The notes: generated by a model not told the origin, from the sequence alone. Positions 344 to 10,160 are shown, counted from the first letter of the stretch. The stretch: DNA of 64,000 nt from Candidatus Kerfeldbacteria bacterium (GCA_047946875.1 CP181398.1:969041-1033040), one strand, 5' to 3'. A program made the numbers and translations.

Positions 344-1600
344 CTATTTTTTATTATAAGCCTTAGCTTTATTCTTTCCATTTCCAATATTTTTTTTTGA
401 TTTAGCTTTTATTTTTTTCTCTTTCTTTTCTTCAACTACTTCCGATTCTGTTATATTTCCCTTCAATTCATCTACAATCTGCTGTCTCATCTTTTCTTCT
501 TTATCTTTCTCTTTAGCTTCACGTTTACCTTTTCGCATTCTTCTAATTATTACAATAATGATAATAATCAGTATTATTGTTCCTAAAATTATCAAAATCT
601 CAACTAATGGAATAATCCAAAATGAAATTTCTTTTTGCACTGGACGTAATGGGTCACCATACAGTAGAGTAATCTTGGCTCGATATTTACCAATCATCAA
701 GCCCGTGCCATAACTAGGAACTTCAAACGTTCTATCTGTACCAGGTAAAATAATTTTATTAACTTCATTGACCTGAATCTCCTCTGTTCGGGATCCCCAT
801 AGATCATTGATGATCTTAATATTACCATCTGGCTTCTGATGAGTATTCCCCTGGTTATCAATAGTGATTAAAAAATCTATTGGTGGTTTGAGGAAAAAAT
901 TCTTCGATTCAAAAAAATCCTTTTTATCAGCTGGTGATAATTTTGGATCTTTATTAGTAAAAACACCGGATTGAAAATCTACCTCAATATCATCTATAGT
1001 TGCTCCTAAAATTTTAATAAAAATATTGGTAGCTACATTGGAACCAACATAAACAGCTGCTCCATCAGAATCAGTTTCTTTAGAAGGCTTTAGCTGAAAT
1101 ACTAATGAAATAAGATGAGTACCCGGTTCAGCATCTCGTGGCACAACGATCTTATATGGAAAATCAACTAAAGTACCTTCGGCTGGCATAGTAATTGGTA
1201 TTTCTTCCTGGCCGTAAACTATATCAATATCTTCTTCAGTCTCCTCGACGTCTACTTCATCAGCATCAACGTTCTCTTCAGTCTCCTCGGCAGTAATTGG
1301 TACATTTGCCCATTGAATCCAAGATCGATCTGGCTTCAAATCCTGAGGGTCAGTCAGAATAAGAACAGCTCCTTCCTTTTCAGGTGATTCTGTAAAATTA
1401 TAAACTACTGGATATACAGTAGCACCAGAAAAAGACTCATCATAAAGCTGTACCAATTGCTCATCAATTGTTTCACCCGGTCTAGCTACAATTTCTAAAT
1501 TAAGTTGAGAAATTGTAACTGCCTCAGCTGGCTGGCTAATAAAAATAGAAGCCATAAGAATTATAGCAACGGCAATTATTGACAAAAAAGATTTTTTCAT
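344..1600 (-). CDS. Secreted protein with C-terminal transmembrane anchor and Lys-rich cytoplasmic tail, function unknown
   Basis: N-terminal signal peptide MKKSFLSIIAVAIILMASIFISQPAEA. After ~330 aa, a hydrophobic helix IIPLVEILIILGTIILIIIIIVII is followed by RRMRKGKREAKEK and a K/E-rich tail. Co-directional with the adjacent surface-protein genes. Confidence 0.6.
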   Translation of the reverse strand: MKKSFLSIIAVAIILMASIFISQPAEAVTISQLNLEIVARPGETIDEQLVQLYDESFSGATVYPVVYNFTESPEKEGAVLILTDPQDLKPDRSWIQWANVPITAEETEENVDADEVDVEETEEDIDIVYGQEEIPITMPAEGTLVDFPYKIVVPRDAEPGTHLISLVFQLKPSKETDSDGAAVYVGSNVATNIFIKILGATIDDIEVDFQSGVFTNKDPKLSPADKKDFFESKNFFLKPPIDFLITIDNQGNTHQKPDGNIKIINDLWGSRTEEIQVNEVNKIILPGTDRTFEVPSYGTGLMIGKYRAKITLLYGDPLRPVQKEISFWIIPLVEILIILGTIILIIIIIVIIRRMRKGKREAKEKDKEEKMRQQIVDELKGNITESEVVEEKKEKKIKAKSKKNIGNGKNKAKAYNKK

Positions 1601-1738
1601 AAATTTATTATATTTATTTTAATAGTAATATTATACCATTTTGCTAAATTATCCTCAAATAACTAACTCAACTAAGATATAACAAAAAGAGTCTCCTTAA
1701 TCGGAGACTCAATAATTGAATAATTTTAAAAATTAATT

Positions 1739-2767
1739 TTAGAAGTCTGCAGCAGCAGTATAGGTAACCGTGTGTGAGTGAGATCCTGCCGCAACTGAAG
1801 AATCAACCGCCACTTTATGTGTCACCGTGATATCATTACCACTTTCAGCAATAGCAGCACCCGAGGAAGCTAGTGCAATAGATGCTTCAATAGGCGAATC
1901 ATTATCCAAATATATAGTACCAAAAGTCCAAGTTCCACTTGTAGCTACCGAAATACCATATTCATCTGTACCGGCAGTAATAGCACCACTATCTTCCACA
2001 AAATCCGTAATACTGCCTAAATCACCGGATTCAGCAATAGAAATAGTTGCTCCACCACTCGCATTAGTACCCACATTAATATCGTAGTTACCAGAAGCAA
2101 CAGTGGTAGTAAGTACTACGCCAAGATTACAAGTTACAACCGGTGTACCAGTACAATAAGTGCCGTCCGCGTTATCAAGCAACATTGAAAGATTTGGTAA
2201 CACTGTAACTGAAACATTTACATCGTTGGCGTTACCGACATAAACCACACCAGCACCAGCGTCATCATTAGTTACCACAGATACGGTATATATATCTGCC
2301 CCAGCCGGATTATATAAACTGTCAGTACCACTTGTCCCTATAGTCATGGTCAATGAACTAGTATCTCCACCAGAGGCTACATCACAGCTAGCTGATAATC
2401 CAGCAGTGGCCGTAGCATCGGTCTGCACATAAGATCCAAATGTCGCACCGACCTGAGCACAAGTAATATCAGTGGAATCAATAGTACCATCCGTATCAAC
2501 CCATGGGTCACCGCCTGAATTCTCACCAATATATACAGTAATAGTGTCACCAGTCGTTATTGCAGTTGTCGGCGAAAAAACAATAGTAATTTGTGACTCA
2601 GTGTTTATAGCTTCACTAGTAACTAGGGTGGTAGTCACTATATCAATACCAGCTGCTTGTGCATCTCGTCCAGCAGAAAACTGGCTCATTACAAATACGA
2701 GAGTAATGATACTGATAATTGCTCCGGATTTTTTTAATAGATTAAAAAACCGCCTCCATTTGAACAT
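1739..2767 (-). CDS. Secreted Thr/Gly-rich surface protein, short paralogue of the giant protein downstream; shares the C-terminal module ending TYTAAADF
   Basis: The ORF runs to 2854. The likely start is M30, with the signal peptide MFKWRRFFNLLKKSGAIISIITLVFVMSQFSAG; alternative starts lie at 2824 and 2854. The C-terminal ~60 aa (TAGTDEYGIS...HTVTYTAAADF) align with the C-terminus of the 1709-aa protein. It shares the internal motif VSVTVLPNLS with the 104-aa protein. Confidence 0.6.
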   Translation of the reverse strand: MFKWRRFFNLLKKSGAIISIITLVFVMSQFSAGRDAQAAGIDIVTTTLVTSEAINTESQITIVFSPTTAITTGDTITVYIGENSGGDPWVDTDGTIDSTDITCAQVGATFGSYVQTDATATAGLSASCDVASGGDTSSLTMTIGTSGTDSLYNPAGADIYTVSVVTNDDAGAGVVYVGNANDVNVSVTVLPNLSMLLDNADGTYCTGTPVVTCNLGVVLTTTVASGNYDINVGTNASGGATISIAESGDLGSITDFVEDSGAITAGTDEYGISVATSGTWTFGTIYLDNDSPIEASIALASSGAAIAESGNDITVTHKVAVDSSVAAGSHSHTVTYTAAADF

Positions 2768-2979
2768 ATTGATATTGTGGAAATAGTGTGTATAAACCCT
2801 ATTTTTATGATTTTTGTTTTTCATTTTGTCCCTTATTTTAAAGGATATTTTCATTTTATTATATTCTTTCCCGCGTCTAAACAGGTAGTATATATATCTA
2901 TAATAGCATATATTCAGAAACTAGTCAATAATAAATCCAGTAATATTAAATGAACACATTATTGACTCACCTATTATTA

Positions 2980-5900
2980 TTAAAAATCTCCGGCGCAGGT
3001 ATAAGTAACAATATGCGAAAAAATAGCGCCTGCCGTAATAGCCGCTGCAGCCGCTTCGTAGGTCATAGCTGTAGCACTGGCAGTAACTCGTCCTGCATTA
3101 GATGCTACAGTAAGTGGCGCACCAGTAATAGCAACATCGTTAGCTCCTAATTGACAATCTGCTCCAGTACAACTAATGCCATATTCTTCACTACCGGCTG
3201 TCACCGTATTATCAACTACATCATCTATATCATCGGCTCCATTTCGAATATTACCATCCTCCACCACACTGCAGGTATAACCATTCGGAGCGTTGGTTGT
3301 AACTGTTAAATTATGATTATCACTTCCAACTGTTAGAGTATTAATAACTCCCAAATTCATCACATTAGCACTTAAAGAAAAACCTAAATTATCGCTCCAG
3401 TCCACGACAGCCCCGCTATTTTCTTGATCATATGCTTCACCTCCTTTATTTCCATCCCACCAAAGAAACTTCCAATAAACACCTGCACCGATTGCATCAA
3501 CATTAAAATCAACAATAGAATCTATCCCATCCCCATTATCATCAAATATAACATTCCTAAATATATCATCAGAAGTGATGCCATCCGCAACAATATACCT
3601 GGAATCAACTCCATCTCCGGCATTGTCAAAACTTCCATCAGATAGCTCTGTTACCGTTGCTGTAGTATGAATATACAACCCATCATTATCAATATAGTCA
3701 AAATCATAATATTGTGCGTTGATAGTGCCATTTATATCCATTGCATAGTTGCCCGTACTATCCCGAGTAATAAGTGTTCTATTTGAGGCGGCATTTTGGC
3801 CTTTTATTTCAAGGGTTTCACCATTATCTACAGTCATGGACGCTCCAGGAGCAAAGCGTACGTCTGCCTGACGGGTTACTGCCGCGCCGTCTTCAAAATC
3901 CTTGGCATAGCTCCAATACTCGTTGGTGCGGGAATTGCACGTACCATAGATATTAAGCCGGCCGGCACTGCCAGCGTGATCCTGAGAAAACAGGCAGCCG
4001 CCAGAATCAATGGTAAACGTAGTAGCTACAGAATCCCACATGACTATGTCTTCTGATGCCCCAATACGCAAGGTAATAAAAGTGTCTCCGAGATGCGTTT
4101 TATTATTAATGTTGTACATACCACCGGAGCCATTAAGATACAGAGTTGATCCAGTCCAGGTAGTATTAGCTCCGGCCACACTTAAGTCAAAATTACCCCC
4201 TACCTCCAAAACAACACTTGCTACAGAAAATGCGCTGGCTGCGGTCAATGTAAGGTTACTGCTTGTTGTCATATTATCGGTCTGTACAGTCCAGTCACCT
4301 GAAGCATGATTAAAAACAACTGTACCAAAACTTTGAGAGCCCGCCTCTACTGTTTCACTACCAGCATCTGAATCAAATGTCACCGTACCCGAGTTTGAAG
4401 TAAAGGTACCGTTGTTATCCCAGGAACCAGCCACATTGAATGCACTGGAATCTGATGCGTTCAACTCTGCTCCAGAAGTTATGGAAACGTTACCAGCTAC
4501 GTCAGTCACCGGATCATTGATTGTGAGATCCAACTCGCCGTCATTCACGGTCAACGCACCATCGACGGTAAATGCGCCGGAGATAATTACATCGTCAACA
4601 TCATCTGATGCCCCAGCGTTATTTGAATAAAAATTATAAAATGCTTTACTGCCCGTGGTGACAGTTTGATCAGCAGTACCATCCGGCTCTACAATTGAAT
4701 TTGTAAACGGAATAAACGTACCAGTACCAGACATAGTCCAGTTACCGCCGAATGTTACTGTGGTAGGATCTGCGTCAGCATTTGGCGCATCATCCTGTAA
4801 ATCAAAAGCACCAGTTCCCTGCACATCTATGGCCCCTGAAATATCTACTTCCCAGCCGTGTGTTTCAAGCCTATCACCCGTAGCTATAGTTAAACTACTG
4901 GCAGAAAAATCACTTTTTAATTTAGTAGTGCCGGGACTCTGGCCAATCTGCACAATACCCATATCTTGCTTAGCACCAGTGCTTTGATCATCAAACCACT
5001 GGTCATCCAGCACACCATCCAAAATAAGCTTACCTGTACCAGCTCCGGAAGAATCAAATGTACCCCCATCAGTAATGACAAAAGAAGTCTCTCCATCTCC
5101 AGTAGCAATAAAATCAACGTTATTACCGTGTGAAAAATTGGCGCTGGCACCAATACTAAAATCTGCCGCCACGGCTAGCTGATCAGCATTTGAAACATCA
5201 CCAGTGCCGGTAACAGACAAACCTTGAAATGTATTTCCGTCAGAAGTAATAGTCTTAGACGACCCGTCCATCTGGAAAGTATTACCACTGGTAAAAGTAA
5301 CGCTACCACCAGTAAAGTCAATATTACCCGTAACCGTCCAGGCACTTATTCCTGTGTTAAGTGTAGGCGTACCGCCTCCACCATAATTAGTAATTAGATC
5401 GCCGGTGATATTTATTATTGGATCATGTCCTACACCAGTTAAAATCGTAGTACCACCTAATGTATCATCAGTTACCTCCAAATTTCCAGAAAAAGTCAAC
5501 GTTTGACTACCCACCGTGCCAAGAGTAGCCGTATACGTATTTGCACCACTATTATTATAAATTTCTACATTATCACCATATGTTCTTTGGGGAATATTTG
5601 TATCACCTGATTCACTAATAAAAAACCTCAGAGGTGCTGAAATAGTCCCTGATGTAGGGAAAATATTTGATGACTGGTAATCCAGCAACCCCGTACCATC
5701 AATAGTGCCATTCAACGTAATAGATGATGAAGTGTCCATAGTTAACGTAACAGTATCAATAGTAAAAGTATCATCAGTCACTACAATTAAAGTACCACCA
5801 ACAGTCAGGCCACTCGTCTGCAAAGTAATAGTACCAGTTGAAGATGGATCGATTGTTAAGTTATTTAGAGTTTCATTACCGCCGACAATACTGTTTGACG

Positions 5901-8004
5901 TGCCGGTCATAGTTACCGCCGATGTGCCAGCAATAATAATACTACCAGTCATATTCAAATCACCCGCTACTGTATGAGTAGCATTAGCCAAAGTAATAGT
6001 ACCACCAGAGAGCGTTAAATTCTGTAGCGTATTGCCGGCCGTGGTTAATAAACCACCACCATCCATAACTAGCGTATTACCGGCGGTGGCAGTATAAGAT
6101 CCATCCGAAAAATTGACATTGCCGGAAACTGTCCAAGTGCCCGTGCCAGAAATAATATTTTCAGCACTAGTCCCCGCTCCAGTGAAATCCAAATCTCCCC
6201 CGATCGTAACAGTCGGATTGTTAGTAACCCCAGTCAAAGTTACATCACCAGGAGTATCTCCAGCCGCTATAACATAAAGATGAGAAGACGCTCCAGCCAA
6301 AGTATATGTCCCGGAGGCAAATGTAACCGTCCGACCTGTCGCACTATTAGAATATATCTCTACTAAACCACTGTATGTCCGAGCATCAAAAGTAGTTGAA
6401 GCTATATTACCAGCCGAAGTATCGAAACGTGTGATAGCGCTCAGTGTCCCAGCTCCCGCACCTGGACCACCAGAAGCATCAGTAAAGCATAGTCTGCCGG
6501 CACCCGTAATGTCCCCATCCAGCGTCATGGTCGCCCCAGTATGTGTAATAATCCGACCTGTATCAATAGTAAAAATATCACTGGTATCAACATCTACCGT
6601 ACCGCTAACCGTAAAATCGTTAGTCTGAGCTGTCCACGTACCACTACCATCACTGCCTATAAATGTCAGATTGTTAAAACCAGAACTACCCGCTTCTATA
6701 ATATTATCGGTGTCAGCCGCGTCAAAAGTAATTGTAGAAGATGAGGCCGTATAAGTACCGGTATTCACCCAATCTCCTGACACGGTAATGGACTCTGATG
6801 ATCCAGCCGTGTAAGTACCTACAATTTTTATATCATCAAAAACTGTCGTTCCGCCAGGCACGAATTCATCCCCGGTCCAAACATAAAATATCCTCGCATC
6901 ACTGACCGTCAGCGTACCGGCATTTGACGTGAATCCAATCTCAGTATCAATGCAGTTAGTACCGGAATCATTATCACAGTCAGCGAGATCAGCATTAGTT
7001 ACCGTAGTGGAATTTTCATCCCTAACAATAACCCGATCCTGATAAATTGACAGGCCGGTACAATTAGGCGAACCCGTACAGGCCGCCCCGTAAGTTACTA
7101 CCAGCGTGCCATCAGCCGTAGCACCATCCAGCCATATCACCAGCTCATCACCGTTGGAGGGCTCAGTAATGTTGACTGTCCAATTCCCTGATCCGTCCGT
7201 GCCGTCGGCATCCGAAGCCGTAGCACCAGTAGAACTATTTACTATTTTAATTGCTCCTCCGCTGTTATTCAGCGTGGCTACTCCTTCGTTAGTATAAGCA
7301 ATTCCAGAAATAGTGCTGGTTGCAGGTACACTGGCAATCACCCCAGGAATAACCGTATACGTATCCGACGGACTGGCCCGAAAACAATACGTTTCTGAAT
7401 CTGAGGCATTACTGGTAAAGGCCACCGTATATTCCATTTCCGTATAATAAGTTGTTAAGAGCGCTTTTTTGGGATCGGAAGTATTGGACGGATCCTCGGC
7501 CATATCACCGGTCTGAAATAACGAATTTTCATCAGCCAAAGTACAGCTTGTAACCGATGTACAATTTGTTGACTGATCATTATCTGCGTAATAACTAGTG
7601 GTGGTCATTTCCACCGGCTCGGTAGTAGGAGTAACGGGCACATTGGCAAAATTACCATCAGCCACACTTGTACACACACCTGCCCCGCCAAGAGCTGCAT
7701 ACTGCAAAATAAAAGAAGTGGTAGTGCTGGCAGCAGTCCCCTCATTTGACAGCTCAAAACGAATACGAAAATTAGTGCCGACTGTTACGCCATTAGAAGA
7801 ATCAGCGTCAACAGATGACAGGTCAGTATTAAGAAATGAAGCAGCAGTCTCCGAGCCATCATCATCACGCAACGAGTAGTGTATCTGGATAACATTAGGA
7901 CTGCCTGATTCATGGGCCAATGCAAAATCAACATATGTAAACAAACTTGCCGAGATTACAACAATTAATACAATGATATATTTTAATAATAAACTAAATT
8001 TCAT
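2980..8004 (-). CDS. Giant (~1675 aa) secreted Thr/Gly/Ser-rich beta-helix-like repeat surface protein (adhesin-like, PATR-like GxxTLxLSGGTITL repeats)
   Basis: Signal peptide MKFSLLLKYIIVLIVVISASLFTYVDFALA. The ORF track extends to 8109; the start was trimmed to the ATG at 8002-8004, with an alternative at 8031. The sequence is extremely T/G/S/N-rich with reiterated GT.T..G and NTL.NLTLSGGTITL motifs. The C-terminus (AGSEEYGIS...SHIVTYTCAGDF) is homologous to the 371-aa neighbour. Confidence 0.7.
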   Translation of the reverse strand: MKFSLLLKYIIVLIVVISASLFTYVDFALAHESGSPNVIQIHYSLRDDDGSETAASFLNTDLSSVDADSSNGVTVGTNFRIRFELSNEGTAASTTTSFILQYAALGGAGVCTSVADGNFANVPVTPTTEPVEMTTTSYYADNDQSTNCTSVTSCTLADENSLFQTGDMAEDPSNTSDPKKALLTTYYTEMEYTVAFTSNASDSETYCFRASPSDTYTVIPGVIASVPATSTISGIAYTNEGVATLNNSGGAIKIVNSSTGATASDADGTDGSGNWTVNITEPSNGDELVIWLDGATADGTLVVTYGAACTGSPNCTGLSIYQDRVIVRDENSTTVTNADLADCDNDSGTNCIDTEIGFTSNAGTLTVSDARIFYVWTGDEFVPGGTTVFDDIKIVGTYTAGSSESITVSGDWVNTGTYTASSSTITFDAADTDNIIEAGSSGFNNLTFIGSDGSGTWTAQTNDFTVSGTVDVDTSDIFTIDTGRIITHTGATMTLDGDITGAGRLCFTDASGGPGAGAGTLSAITRFDTSAGNIASTTFDARTYSGLVEIYSNSATGRTVTFASGTYTLAGASSHLYVIAAGDTPGDVTLTGVTNNPTVTIGGDLDFTGAGTSAENIISGTGTWTVSGNVNFSDGSYTATAGNTLVMDGGGLLTTAGNTLQNLTLSGGTITLANATHTVAGDLNMTGSIIIAGTSAVTMTGTSNSIVGGNETLNNLTIDPSSTGTITLQTSGLTVGGTLIVVTDDTFTIDTVTLTMDTSSSITLNGTIDGTGLLDYQSSNIFPTSGTISAPLRFFISESGDTNIPQRTYGDNVEIYNNSGANTYTATLGTVGSQTLTFSGNLEVTDDTLGGTTILTGVGHDPIINITGDLITNYGGGGTPTLNTGISAWTVTGNIDFTGGSVTFTSGNTFQMDGSSKTITSDGNTFQGLSVTGTGDVSNADQLAVAADFSIGASANFSHGNNVDFIATGDGETSFVITDGGTFDSSGAGTGKLILDGVLDDQWFDDQSTGAKQDMGIVQIGQSPGTTKLKSDFSASSLTIATGDRLETHGWEVDISGAIDVQGTGAFDLQDDAPNADADPTTVTFGGNWTMSGTGTFIPFTNSIVEPDGTADQTVTTGSKAFYNFYSNNAGASDDVDDVIISGAFTVDGALTVNDGELDLTINDPVTDVAGNVSITSGAELNASDSSAFNVAGSWDNNGTFTSNSGTVTFDSDAGSETVEAGSQSFGTVVFNHASGDWTVQTDNMTTSSNLTLTAASAFSVASVVLEVGGNFDLSVAGANTTWTGSTLYLNGSGGMYNINNKTHLGDTFITLRIGASEDIVMWDSVATTFTIDSGGCLFSQDHAGSAGRLNIYGTCNSRTNEYWSYAKDFEDGAAVTRQADVRFAPGASMTVDNGETLEIKGQNAASNRTLITRDSTGNYAMDINGTINAQYYDFDYIDNDGLYIHTTATVTELSDGSFDNAGDGVDSRYIVADGITSDDIFRNVIFDDNGDGIDSIVDFNVDAIGAGVYWKFLWWDGNKGGEAYDQENSGAVVDWSDNLGFSLSANVMNLGVINTLTVGSDNHNLTVTTNAPNGYTCSVVEDGNIRNGADDIDDVVDNTVTAGSEEYGISCTGADCQLGANDVAITGAPLTVASNAGRVTASATAMTYEAAAAAITAGAIFSHIVTYTCAGDF

Positions 8005-9571
8005 TGTTTGGTTCAAATAAATAAAATTCATATCCAAAATCTTCCAACGTAACATTACGTCCATATACAATAGTCGGGATATCCAGCGTATAGGAAGGAT
8101 TATAGTCATCGGTAAATATTGGTAATTCGCTCAATGTAAAATGATTCTCCAGTAATTCTCTGCCAAAAAAATTTGGTATCATCCCCCGGAAATCCTGCTC
8201 AACAAATTCACGGTCACTCGCAAAGTACACAATAGATCCATAGCCATCAGGATTAGACACAGAAAATTTCACCATAGAGAAAACACTTGCCAGCGTATTA
8301 TAAACAATGGGTTGCTGGTCTTCGGATTTTATCCATCCCATGGCATTCGTACTCAGGATACCATTGGGTTTGAGGATACTTTTTCCTTCAGTAAAAAACT
8401 CTTCAGTCACCATGTGGATCGATGGTTCAGATCCAATAACTATATCAATCATTATTAAATCATACTTTTTGTCAGTATGACGAACATAGTAACGTGCATC
8501 CTGTACGATATACGTAAAATTATCAGTGGTTGGCAAATCAAAAAATTCAGTACTGAGCTCAATAATGCGTGGATTTATCTCTACGATATCAACATTATGC
8601 GTGGTATCGCTTAACTCTTTGACTACGGCACCTCCGCCCAATCCAAGAATTAGGATATCAAGCTTTTGATCCTCCGGAAAAGCATTAATCGCTCCTCGAA
8701 AATACCGCGTATAAGGCCAGGCGGATGAATTAATATCATAATTCCAACAACTTTGGCTGGACGTATCAATCAGCAGACACCTGATGTTTTGGTTCACTGC
8801 CCGTAGTTCATACAGTTTAATATCCCCAAAATAACTTTGCTCCTTATAGATAATTTTTGCCTGAGCGGGTTGTGACACTACATGTGAAGGTAATAAAAAT
8901 TGGATAATTATCAAGAGAACAATTGTAATGATCGACGTGAATCCTCCTCGTTTCGCAAATAACCAGCCAAGAGCTAATATAATAAGCAATGCTCCGGTTG
9001 TACTAAAAATAACTGACAAAGAAAAATTTGGTATTAGAAAAAATCCGCTTGCAAGCGCGCCCACCAAAGAACCGACAGTGGCTATGGCAAAAATTCTTCC
9101 GCTCTGCATGCCTACTGTCCCGATATCCTTAGTTTGGTACCGAATAGCTATTGGGGAAATAGTACCGAGTAAAAATAATGGGATTGAAAACATAATTACC
9201 GAAGCAACCAAAGGACCAAAACGAATTCCAAAAGAATCCGTCCAAATAAGAATAATGCTGTCTAATTTTGGAATTATTAAAAAAATAATACCGGCTGAAA
9301 AAAGGATAGACACGAATAAATCAGTTATTTTTTTTACTTTGAATATTTTCAGGTCAAACTCTTTATCGTGTAATCTGTCGACAGCTTTGCCTCCAAGCCA
9401 ATACCCTAATGCAAGAAAAGCAAGTGCAGTAGAGATAAGCGAAGACCAAACAAAAATCGTTGAACCATAAAATGGAGAGAGGATCCTAGTACCCAAAATT
9501 TCCAAAACCATGACTGCTGCTCCATTAATAAGCAGTGTAACAACAAGCCAAATTTTATTAAATTTATTCAT
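7994..9571 (-). CDS. Membrane-fused spermidine synthase-like protein (polytopic N-terminal domain + aminopropyltransferase/SAM-MTase fold)
   Basis: About 7 N-terminal hydrophobic helices. The C-terminal domain has LDILILGLGGGAVVKEL (glycine-rich SAM/dcSAM motif), VDIVEINPRIIELS and YDLIMID, typical of SpeE-family enzymes. Starts with an ATG (9569-9571). Confidence 0.65.
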   Translation of the reverse strand: MNKFNKIWLVVTLLINGAAVMVLEILGTRILSPFYGSTIFVWSSLISTALAFLALGYWLGGKAVDRLHDKEFDLKIFKVKKITDLFVSILFSAGIIFLIIPKLDSIILIWTDSFGIRFGPLVASVIMFSIPLFLLGTISPIAIRYQTKDIGTVGMQSGRIFAIATVGSLVGALASGFFLIPNFSLSVIFSTTGALLIILALGWLFAKRGGFTSIITIVLLIIIQFLLPSHVVSQPAQAKIIYKEQSYFGDIKLYELRAVNQNIRCLLIDTSSQSCWNYDINSSAWPYTRYFRGAINAFPEDQKLDILILGLGGGAVVKELSDTTHNVDIVEINPRIIELSTEFFDLPTTDNFTYIVQDARYYVRHTDKKYDLIMIDIVIGSEPSIHMVTEEFFTEGKSILKPNGILSTNAMGWIKSEDQQPIVYNTLASVFSMVKFSVSNPDGYGSIVYFASDREFVEQDFRGMIPNFFGRELLENHFTLSELPIFTDDYNPSYTLDIPTIVYGRNVTLEDFGYEFYLFEPNNEI

Positions 9572-9621
9572 AAATTACAGTCATATTATACTAAAAATCA
9601 ACTTTTTTGTAAAAATTTCCT

Positions 9622-9936
9622 CTAATAATCTGCTGTGGCAGTCCAATATATTTCATTCTCACTGATTATATCCTTTCTTAATGTGGCCCCAAAAGGCCAG
9701 TTGGTAGTATATATTGGCAATCCATTATCTATTGATAAAGACAAATTTGGGAGAACAATTACTGACACATATACTTCCTTTTCTACGGATGCAAAACCCC
9801 CACTATCAATGGATTGAGCATTAGTTCCGTTATTAGGCGATAAAAAAATCAATATAAAAATTACTAAAACTAATACTATATTAGCTGTTACCAGCCATTT
9901 TTTTGAATCAATAAAATTTCTCAACATTAAAATCAT
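9622..9936 (-). CDS. Small secreted/membrane-anchored protein, short member of the VLPNLS/C-terminal T-A-x-A-D-[FY] family
   Basis: N-terminal hydrophobic segment LVTANIVLVLVIFILIFL. Carries VSVIVLPNLSLSIDN (compare VSVTVLPNLSMLLDN in the 371-aa protein) and ends YWTATADY (compare TYTAAADF and TYTCAGDF). Its start overlaps the stop of the upstream HTH gene by 4 nt. Confidence 0.5.
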   Translation of the reverse strand: MILMLRNFIDSKKWLVTANIVLVLVIFILIFLSPNNGTNAQSIDSGGFASVEKEVYVSVIVLPNLSLSIDNGLPIYTTNWPFGATLRKDIISENEIYWTATADY

Positions 9937-10100
9937 AAATTAGAATTATTCTTTAAGAATTTCTTAAGGTCTTTGCTGCCAATCCTCCACTGGCCAATAT
10001 GATAAGCACGGAGTTTTTTGGTTTTTATATAACGAAAAAGAGTCCTCTCACTTACGCGTAAGTATTTGGCGACCTCATTTAAGGTATATAACTTTTCCAT
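9933..10100 (-). CDS. Small helix-turn-helix DNA-binding protein (excisionase/MerR-like HTH)
   Basis: LYTLNEVAKYLRVSERTLFRYIKTKKLRAYHIGQWRIGSKDLKKF fits the HTH_17/excisionase-type fold. The ORF runs to 10145; the likely start is MEKLY at 10098-10100. Confidence 0.6.
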   Translation of the reverse strand: MEKLYTLNEVAKYLRVSERTLFRYIKTKKLRAYHIGQWRIGSKDLKKFLKNNSNL

Positions 10101-10160
10101 GCCTTTATGATAATAAGAGAAATTGTGTCTGTCAAGTTTTGTCAAGTTTTGTCAAAGAGG
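10101..10160 (-). promoter_or_regulatory. Three tandem 10-bp direct repeats TTGACAAAAC (minus strand) immediately upstream of the HTH gene; putative promoter/operator
   Basis: The plus strand at 10131-10156 reads gtcaagttttgtcaagttttgtcaa, which is TTGACAaaacTTGACAaaacTTGACA on the minus strand. Possible -10 elements lie downstream (TATTAT with a 14-nt spacer, or TATCAT with a 17-nt spacer, from the last repeat), ending ~10 nt before the ATG. Confidence 0.5.

Follow-up and report, generated by a model that had tools for sequence, protein, structure and literature searches.

CPR bacteria are obligate episymbionts, and the means by which they find and hold their hosts are largely unexplained. 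In one such organism, a Candidatus Kerfeldbacteria bacterium, a locus at positions 344-10160 of a 64,000-nt stretch of DNA (GCA_047946875.1 CP181398.1:969041-1033040; hereafter the window) encodes secreted proteins of very different sizes that resemble each other at their C-termini, which raises the question of what these proteins build. A sequence-only reading had proposed a co-directional surface-protein locus with a novel common C-terminal module, acting either as a non-covalent attachment domain or as a pilus/fibre subunit interface. The analysis described here favours the latter: the locus is probably a divergent, unannotated copy of the Pam pilus system.

Pam pili, described in a 2026 preprint, are CPR-specific, assemble by donor-strand exchange and are the first CPR-specific fibres of known structure, found mainly in Saccharimonadia and Microgenomatia. 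In Candidatus Mycosynbacter amalyticus they comprise the pilins PamA, PamB and PamE, the tip PamT, the chaperones PamC and PamD and the anchor PamR, and the pilins were seen as filaments by cryo-EM (10.64898/2026.03.03.709456). The comparison with Pam made below rests on the NCBIfam models and on this published description, the PamA and PamB structures being PDB entries 25PZ and 25QA.

Layout and conservation of the locus

The co-directional arrangement was borne out, all six genes being carried by the minus strand (Table 1). The order small protein, spermidine synthase/MFS fusion, giant protein, pilin and anchored protein is found in the window and in four related loci (L002, L003, L077 and L078), and the order giant, pilin, pilin and anchored protein in three others (L001, L004 and L079). 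Gene order is kept in at least five CPR genomes, and every named relative belongs to Kerfeldbacteria or Patescibacteria. Profiles run over the 313 ORF frames of the 64-kb window found no further module-bearing or chaperone-like gene, Pfam and NCBIfam found no sortase among the locus proteins, and none of the six has a Pfam match to Usher or PapD. The module proteins end in ...AADF, ...AGDF and ...TADY, and direct reading of these ends revealed no LPXTG motif, no run of hydrophobic residues and no basic tail. Direct reading and NCBIfam ruled out sorting signals of the LPXTG, PEP-CTERM or a similar kind, which the sequence-only reading had raised as an identity that would undo its proposal.

Table 1. 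Features of the locus, in window coordinates
Feature	Position	Strand	Basis and remarks
Membrane-anchored two-Ig-domain protein, 418 aa	344..1600	-	WxLIP (DUF916-DUF3324) homologue
Terminator-like hairpin and T run	1689..1710	-	29 nt past the pilin stop codon
Probable two-domain Pam-type shaft pilin	1739..2854	-	ORF 371 aa; AF2 model, 39 orthologues
Pam pilin C-terminal domain of 371-aa protein	1742..2191	-	NF058581
Linker (putative donor) strand NANDVNVSVTVLPN of pilin	2192..2233	-	the family's best-conserved stretch
Promoter-like site, TTGACT-17-TATTAT with TG	2900..2928	-	upstream of pilin gene; consensus match only
Giant secreted protein	2980..8004	-	1674 aa; probable start 8004 by alignment to L002 orthologue
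Giant C-terminal domain, last 140 aa, PamT-like	2983..3402	-	A1 profile; 4 Cys
Fused 7-TM (MFS-like)/spermidine-synthase-like protein, 525 aa	7994..9571	-	NF037959, PF01564
Mini-subunit, 104 aa	9622..9936	-	A1 profile and BLASTP to pilin linker
HTH_17/excisionase-family DNA-binding protein	9933..10100	-	Pfam HTH_17, TIGR01764
Promoter-like site, TTGACA-17-TATCAT	10135..10107	-	at HTH gene; consensus match

The shared C-terminal module

The last 132 residues of the 371-aa protein align with the 1709-aa giant protein at 37% identity (compositionally adjusted BLASTP, E 3e-10). A non-circular profile of the 371-aa family only (A1), with the giant and the small protein left out, recovered the last 131 residues of the giant among the 313 window ORF frames with E 1e-21. 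The proposed homology of these two C-termini is thus significant in a profile alignment. The module is therefore about 140 aa, or about 140-165 aa, long and not ~60 aa as first proposed. The 104-aa protein, which had been counted as a third carrier, contains only the 20-aa strand preceding the module and not the whole of it.

A profile of the module (A3) found 1023 representatives of clusters formed at 50% identity, 407 of them at E<=1e-10, in proteins of 129-2757 aa, and always at the extreme C-terminus. All the proteins of the locus are rich in T, G, S and A, and the C-terminal match of the 104-aa protein is not significant alone, features that would be expected if the resemblance were a compositional artefact of Thr/Ala/Gly-rich β-proteins encoded by functionally unrelated genes. 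This is hardly conceivable, being refuted by the compositionally adjusted BLASTP and profile values, by the C-terminal position of the domain in all 1023 representatives and by synteny conserved in eight further loci.

Pfam contains no domain covering the module, either for the window proteins or for 142 family members, and a third homologue search, word-indexed (A4), yielded close relatives alone, without informative names. The NCBIfam model NF058581 (CPR_Pam_pilin_C), in turn, is matched by 85 of 105 family members (best E 2.5e-15), and the PamT model NF058579 by 24 of them. Whole window proteins have no match to the Pam models at E<=1; these surfaced only in scans of diverse relatives or of the C-terminal pieces by themselves, the pilin piece matching NF058581 over profile positions 5-148 of 148 (E 3e-4) and the giant piece matching both NF058581 (E 3.2e-5) and NF058579 (E 0.0039). 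The scores are far under the NCBIfam cut-offs, with 20.9 bits (pilin) and 24.0 bits (giant) against 55 for NF058581 and 16.6 against 240 for PamT, which is why the window proteins are still labelled “hypothetical”. The module corresponds to the C-terminal domain of the Pam pilins, the part that takes up the donor strand of the next subunit, and of the two functions originally offered the pilus/fibre interface fits best. Contrary to what had been claimed, the module is not novel, since NF058581 and NF058579 already model it and a cryo-EM study exists.

The 371-aa protein as a probable shaft pilin

Orthologue alignment suggests that the 371-aa ORF actually starts at 2824 (361 aa) or at 2767 (342 aa, the NCBI start). 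The protein contains a long basic signal peptide, a nine-strand N-terminal β-sandwich, a linker and the C-terminal domain. In the AF2 monomer model (pLDDT 89), nine strands are found in residues 44-177 and seven in residues 193-339, and the linker between them (residues 178-192) has no secondary structure and coincides with a dip in pLDDT. The motif V.V.VLPNLS lies outside the domain fold, in this linker strand preceding it. Cysteines are paired at 103/128 and 205/213, and the architecture of the AF2 model, including these pairs, agrees with the published description of PamA and PamB. The linker is a putative donor strand, a role taken from the Pam cryo-EM study (10.64898/2026.03.03.709456). 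A PDB search by sequence, in a set without the Pam entries 25PZ and 25QA, gave no match for the pilin family.

The pilin gene is flanked by putative expression signals of its own. The promoter-like site upstream of it comes from a scan that overall was not above chance (46 sites found against 38 ± 7.5 expected); L002 and L003 each have a pair of promoter-like sites in the corresponding intergenic region. The terminator-like hairpin (-15 kcal/mol, z -2.66) has equivalents of different sequence after the pilin gene in the same two loci. Such sites and a terminator are expected for a highly expressed subunit, and within a Pam-type pilus the 371-aa protein is likely to be the shaft pilin.

The giant protein

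The ORF of the giant protein is listed from 8109 (1709 aa), with 8004 as the probable start. It comprises about 1530 aa rich in T, G, S and D, followed by the Pam-type acceptor domain. No Pfam, NCBIfam or PDB sequence match was obtained for the N-terminal part, and no internal repeats were detected at the DNA or protein level. The giant, in common with P0154 and P0241, which are PamT-like, aligns to the module profile only from position 18 onwards; positions 1-17, corresponding to the linker, are missing in window-type giants and in PamT-like proteins. The giant therefore has the trait of a PamT-type tip, an acceptor-only subunit. Lacking a linker, it could occupy only the distal end of a fibre, and it is thus probably a tip adhesin.

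The membrane-anchored partner

The 418-aa protein contains a signal peptide, two β-domains, a C-terminal transmembrane (TM) helix (modelled at residues 332-380) and a tail rich in Lys; the signal peptide, the TM anchor and the tail had already been recognized in the sequence-only reading. That reading had also suggested looking for DUF916/DUF3324, and the family indeed proved homologous, over both domains, to the Firmicute WxLIP (DUF916-DUF3324; hhalign E 4.8e-16). WxL clusters of Lactobacillales and Bacillales encode small and large WxL proteins and a WxLIP composed of DUF916, DUF3324 and a TM helix; the WxL proteins are regarded as platforms bound to the wall and not as filaments, and according to a prediction the fold of the WxL domain is completed by a hairpin of WxLIP (PMC10599100, PMC9772566, PMC1534035). 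The 418-aa protein thus combines the defining trait of the WxLIP partner with that of PamC/D, a two-domain protein with a C-terminal TM helix encoded in the same operon. PDB searches by sequence gave no match for the partner family, nor, in a set without a WxL domain structure, for P0102 or a real WxL protein, and NCBIfam returned only TM-region noise for the partner family. In a tblastn search of plasmids P0102 gave only weak matches (E 2-9), six of the nine being Actinomycetota genes annotated as DUF916, with RTX or LamG and not WxL neighbours. The 418-aa protein would be the Pam chaperone and/or anchor.

It is the only member of its family in the 64-kb window, which has neither PamR nor a second chaperone. 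Together with the absence of a linker in the giant and the hairpin predicted for WxLIP, this is compatible with a single tethered adhesin, in which the 418-aa protein would hold the giant, and with it the 371-aa protein, by donor-strand complementation, with no polymeric shaft. We consider this very unlikely, however, as the 371-aa pilin combines a donor linker with an acceptor domain, which self-polymerization requires, its gene comes with promoter-like sites and a terminator of its own, and loci with two tandem pilins exist.

The mini-subunit, the HTH protein and the SpeE fusion

The 104-aa protein opens with a signal peptide or anchor, followed by a linker-like strand at residues 54-73 (DNA 9718..9777) and then by a ~35-aa mini β-unit ending in YWTATADY. 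The strand is recognized by the A1 profile (E 9e-5) and the protein aligns with the pilin linker by BLASTP (E 2e-6), so that the V.V.VLPNLS motif noted as common to the 104-aa and 371-aa proteins is upheld. The proposed likeness of its YWTATADY end to the module is not significant alone (A1 domain E 29), yet the last ~48 aa, with this ending, are kept in the orthologues from L002, L003, L077 and L078. BLASTP found nothing significant between the 104-aa and 1709-aa proteins, and the former has no Pfam or NCBIfam match. It may be a terminator or adaptor subunit.

The HTH protein, as annotated in the sequence-only reading, matches HTH_17 (Pfam, E 6.8e-14) and TIGR01764 (E 8.8e-10). Its ORF is listed from a TTG at 10145, and orthologue alignment points to an ATG at 10100, giving a 55-aa protein whose gene overlaps that of the mini-subunit by 4 nt; in L003 and L078, too, genes for 55-aa orthologues immediately precede that of the small protein. 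The membrane-fused SpeE homologue was likewise confirmed, by NF037959 (fused MFS/spermidine synthase; E 3.5e-48, 164.5 bits against a cut-off of 40) and PF01564 (E 1e-10), with seven TM segments by a crude hydropathy count. It is found at the same position in the four loci of identical gene order and is thus conserved in this locus subtype. Both proteins may have a part in the pilus system.

Proposed assembly mechanism

Taken together, these features suggest that the locus products assemble into a filament by donor-strand exchange. The structural proteins would all be exported via Sec signal peptides. The conserved linker NDVNVSVTVLPN of an incoming pilin would fill the groove left in the incomplete Ig-like C-terminal domain of the previous pilin, and the giant, offering only an acceptor domain of PamT-like form, would be located at the distal end. 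The 418-aa PapD/WxLIP-like protein would probably cap the groove of new subunits before exchange and, because it is the sole anchored component, probably also tethers the finished fibre. The 104-aa protein, a linker with a minimal domain remnant, possibly serves as terminator or adaptor.

A much-diverged Pam-type operon would thus be present in a lineage of the Parcubacteria group, invisible at current annotation thresholds, within a module family as large as that described above. It offers a minimal part list in which the giant clearly stands out as the candidate for a tip that binds the host. The homology between the partner and WxLIP ties this CPR system to a widespread but mechanistically ill-defined surface system found in lactic acid bacteria, in enterococci and in Listeria, and therefore provides a concrete mechanism to test for WxL clusters, namely donor-strand complementation.

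Comparison with known systems

The locus shares with Pam a CPR-only distribution and Sec signal peptides, a pilin in which a linker strand joins a nine-strand N-terminal domain to a truncated Ig-like C-terminal domain and cysteines are paired, an acceptor-only subunit without linker, and a two-domain partner with a C-terminal TM anchor; both lack usher, sortase and ATPase and have an MFS-type membrane protein nearby. The window lineage, however, belongs to Kerfeldbacteria (Parcubacteria group) and not to Saccharimonadia or Microgenomatia, and its proteins score below the NCBIfam cut-offs. It encodes one pilin and one anchored protein, whereas Pam has three pilins, two chaperones and the RbmA-like PamR. 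The acceptor-only domain is fused to ~1530 aa, whereas PamT is single-domain, and the cassette also includes the 104-aa linker-plus-mini-domain protein, the 7-TM/SpdSyn fusion and the HTH_17 gene.

In the chaperone-usher pili of Gram-negative bacteria (Pap/Fim), too, a donor strand fills up an incomplete Ig-like pilin domain, the tip adhesin joins an adhesin part to a pilin domain that lacks a donor strand, following the FimH/PapG logic, and the extreme C-terminus of the subunits is conserved. In contrast, the window system has no outer membrane or usher, its putative chaperone is membrane-anchored, and its putative donor strand lies inside the chain, linking two domains, instead of extending the N-terminus. 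Sequence similarity between Pap/Fim and window proteins is not detectable.

The third system, WxL/Csc, had been loosely invoked in the sequence-only reading, and since the 418-aa family is homologous to WxLIP the analogy is real for the partner protein, including its C-terminal TM helix. Both systems have small and large secreted proteins with a strictly C-terminal all-β domain in common, and in both a strand of the partner is predicted to enter that domain. Unlike WxL clusters, the window has no LPXTG CscD-like protein and comes from Kerfeldbacteria instead of Lactobacillales or Bacillales. The extension of the analogy to the module was not established by profile scores. As the sequence-only reading had observed, WxL motifs are not evident, the dual W-x-L being replaced by A-T-I/Y-T-A in the pilin and Y-T-C/Y-T-C in the giant, and Pfam WxL (PF13731) matches neither the window proteins nor the 37 (E<=1) and 105 family members scanned. 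Module and WxL profiles gave hhalign scores of 15.7-22.1 (P 0.01-0.1), above column-shuffled nulls and within the 12-24 range of unrelated real β-sandwich profiles, small against large WxL scoring 120; an HMM decoy test gave mixed results. Homology between module and WxL domain was rejected as unproven after these background controls.

The locus could be read as a WxL-type surface complex, in which the module would bind the wall non-covalently and be kept on the peptidoglycan by the WxLIP-like protein, with no polymerization, as has been proposed for the Csc/WxL clusters of Lactobacillales. The partner is a true WxLIP homologue, the layout agrees with the definition of a WxL cluster (one WxLIP next to small and large proteins that have their C-terminal domain in common), and module and WxL domain have the collinear motifs LS.ID...LG, GTNA..G[AY]x[LC] and Y..xVT[WY]T. 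This reading is nevertheless unlikely, given the missing PF13731 matches and the background-level scores, the recognition of the module family by the Pam pilin models and the filaments that Pam pilins form in cryo-EM.

Given the homology established for the 418-aa family, WxLIP would correspond in Firmicutes to the Pam chaperone/anchor. We put forward only tentatively that Pam pili and WxL/Csc are two branches of one ancient monoderm system of membrane-anchored chaperones and donor-strand complementation, the WxL domain being a diverged Pam-type incomplete Ig acceptor. If so, WxL proteins would be held, or even polymerized, by strand complementation and not by simple peptidoglycan binding, Pam-type machinery would not be exclusive to CPR bacteria, and the Kerfeldbacteria locus, with one pilin, a giant tip, a mini-subunit and a chaperone, would be close to the minimal form of the system.

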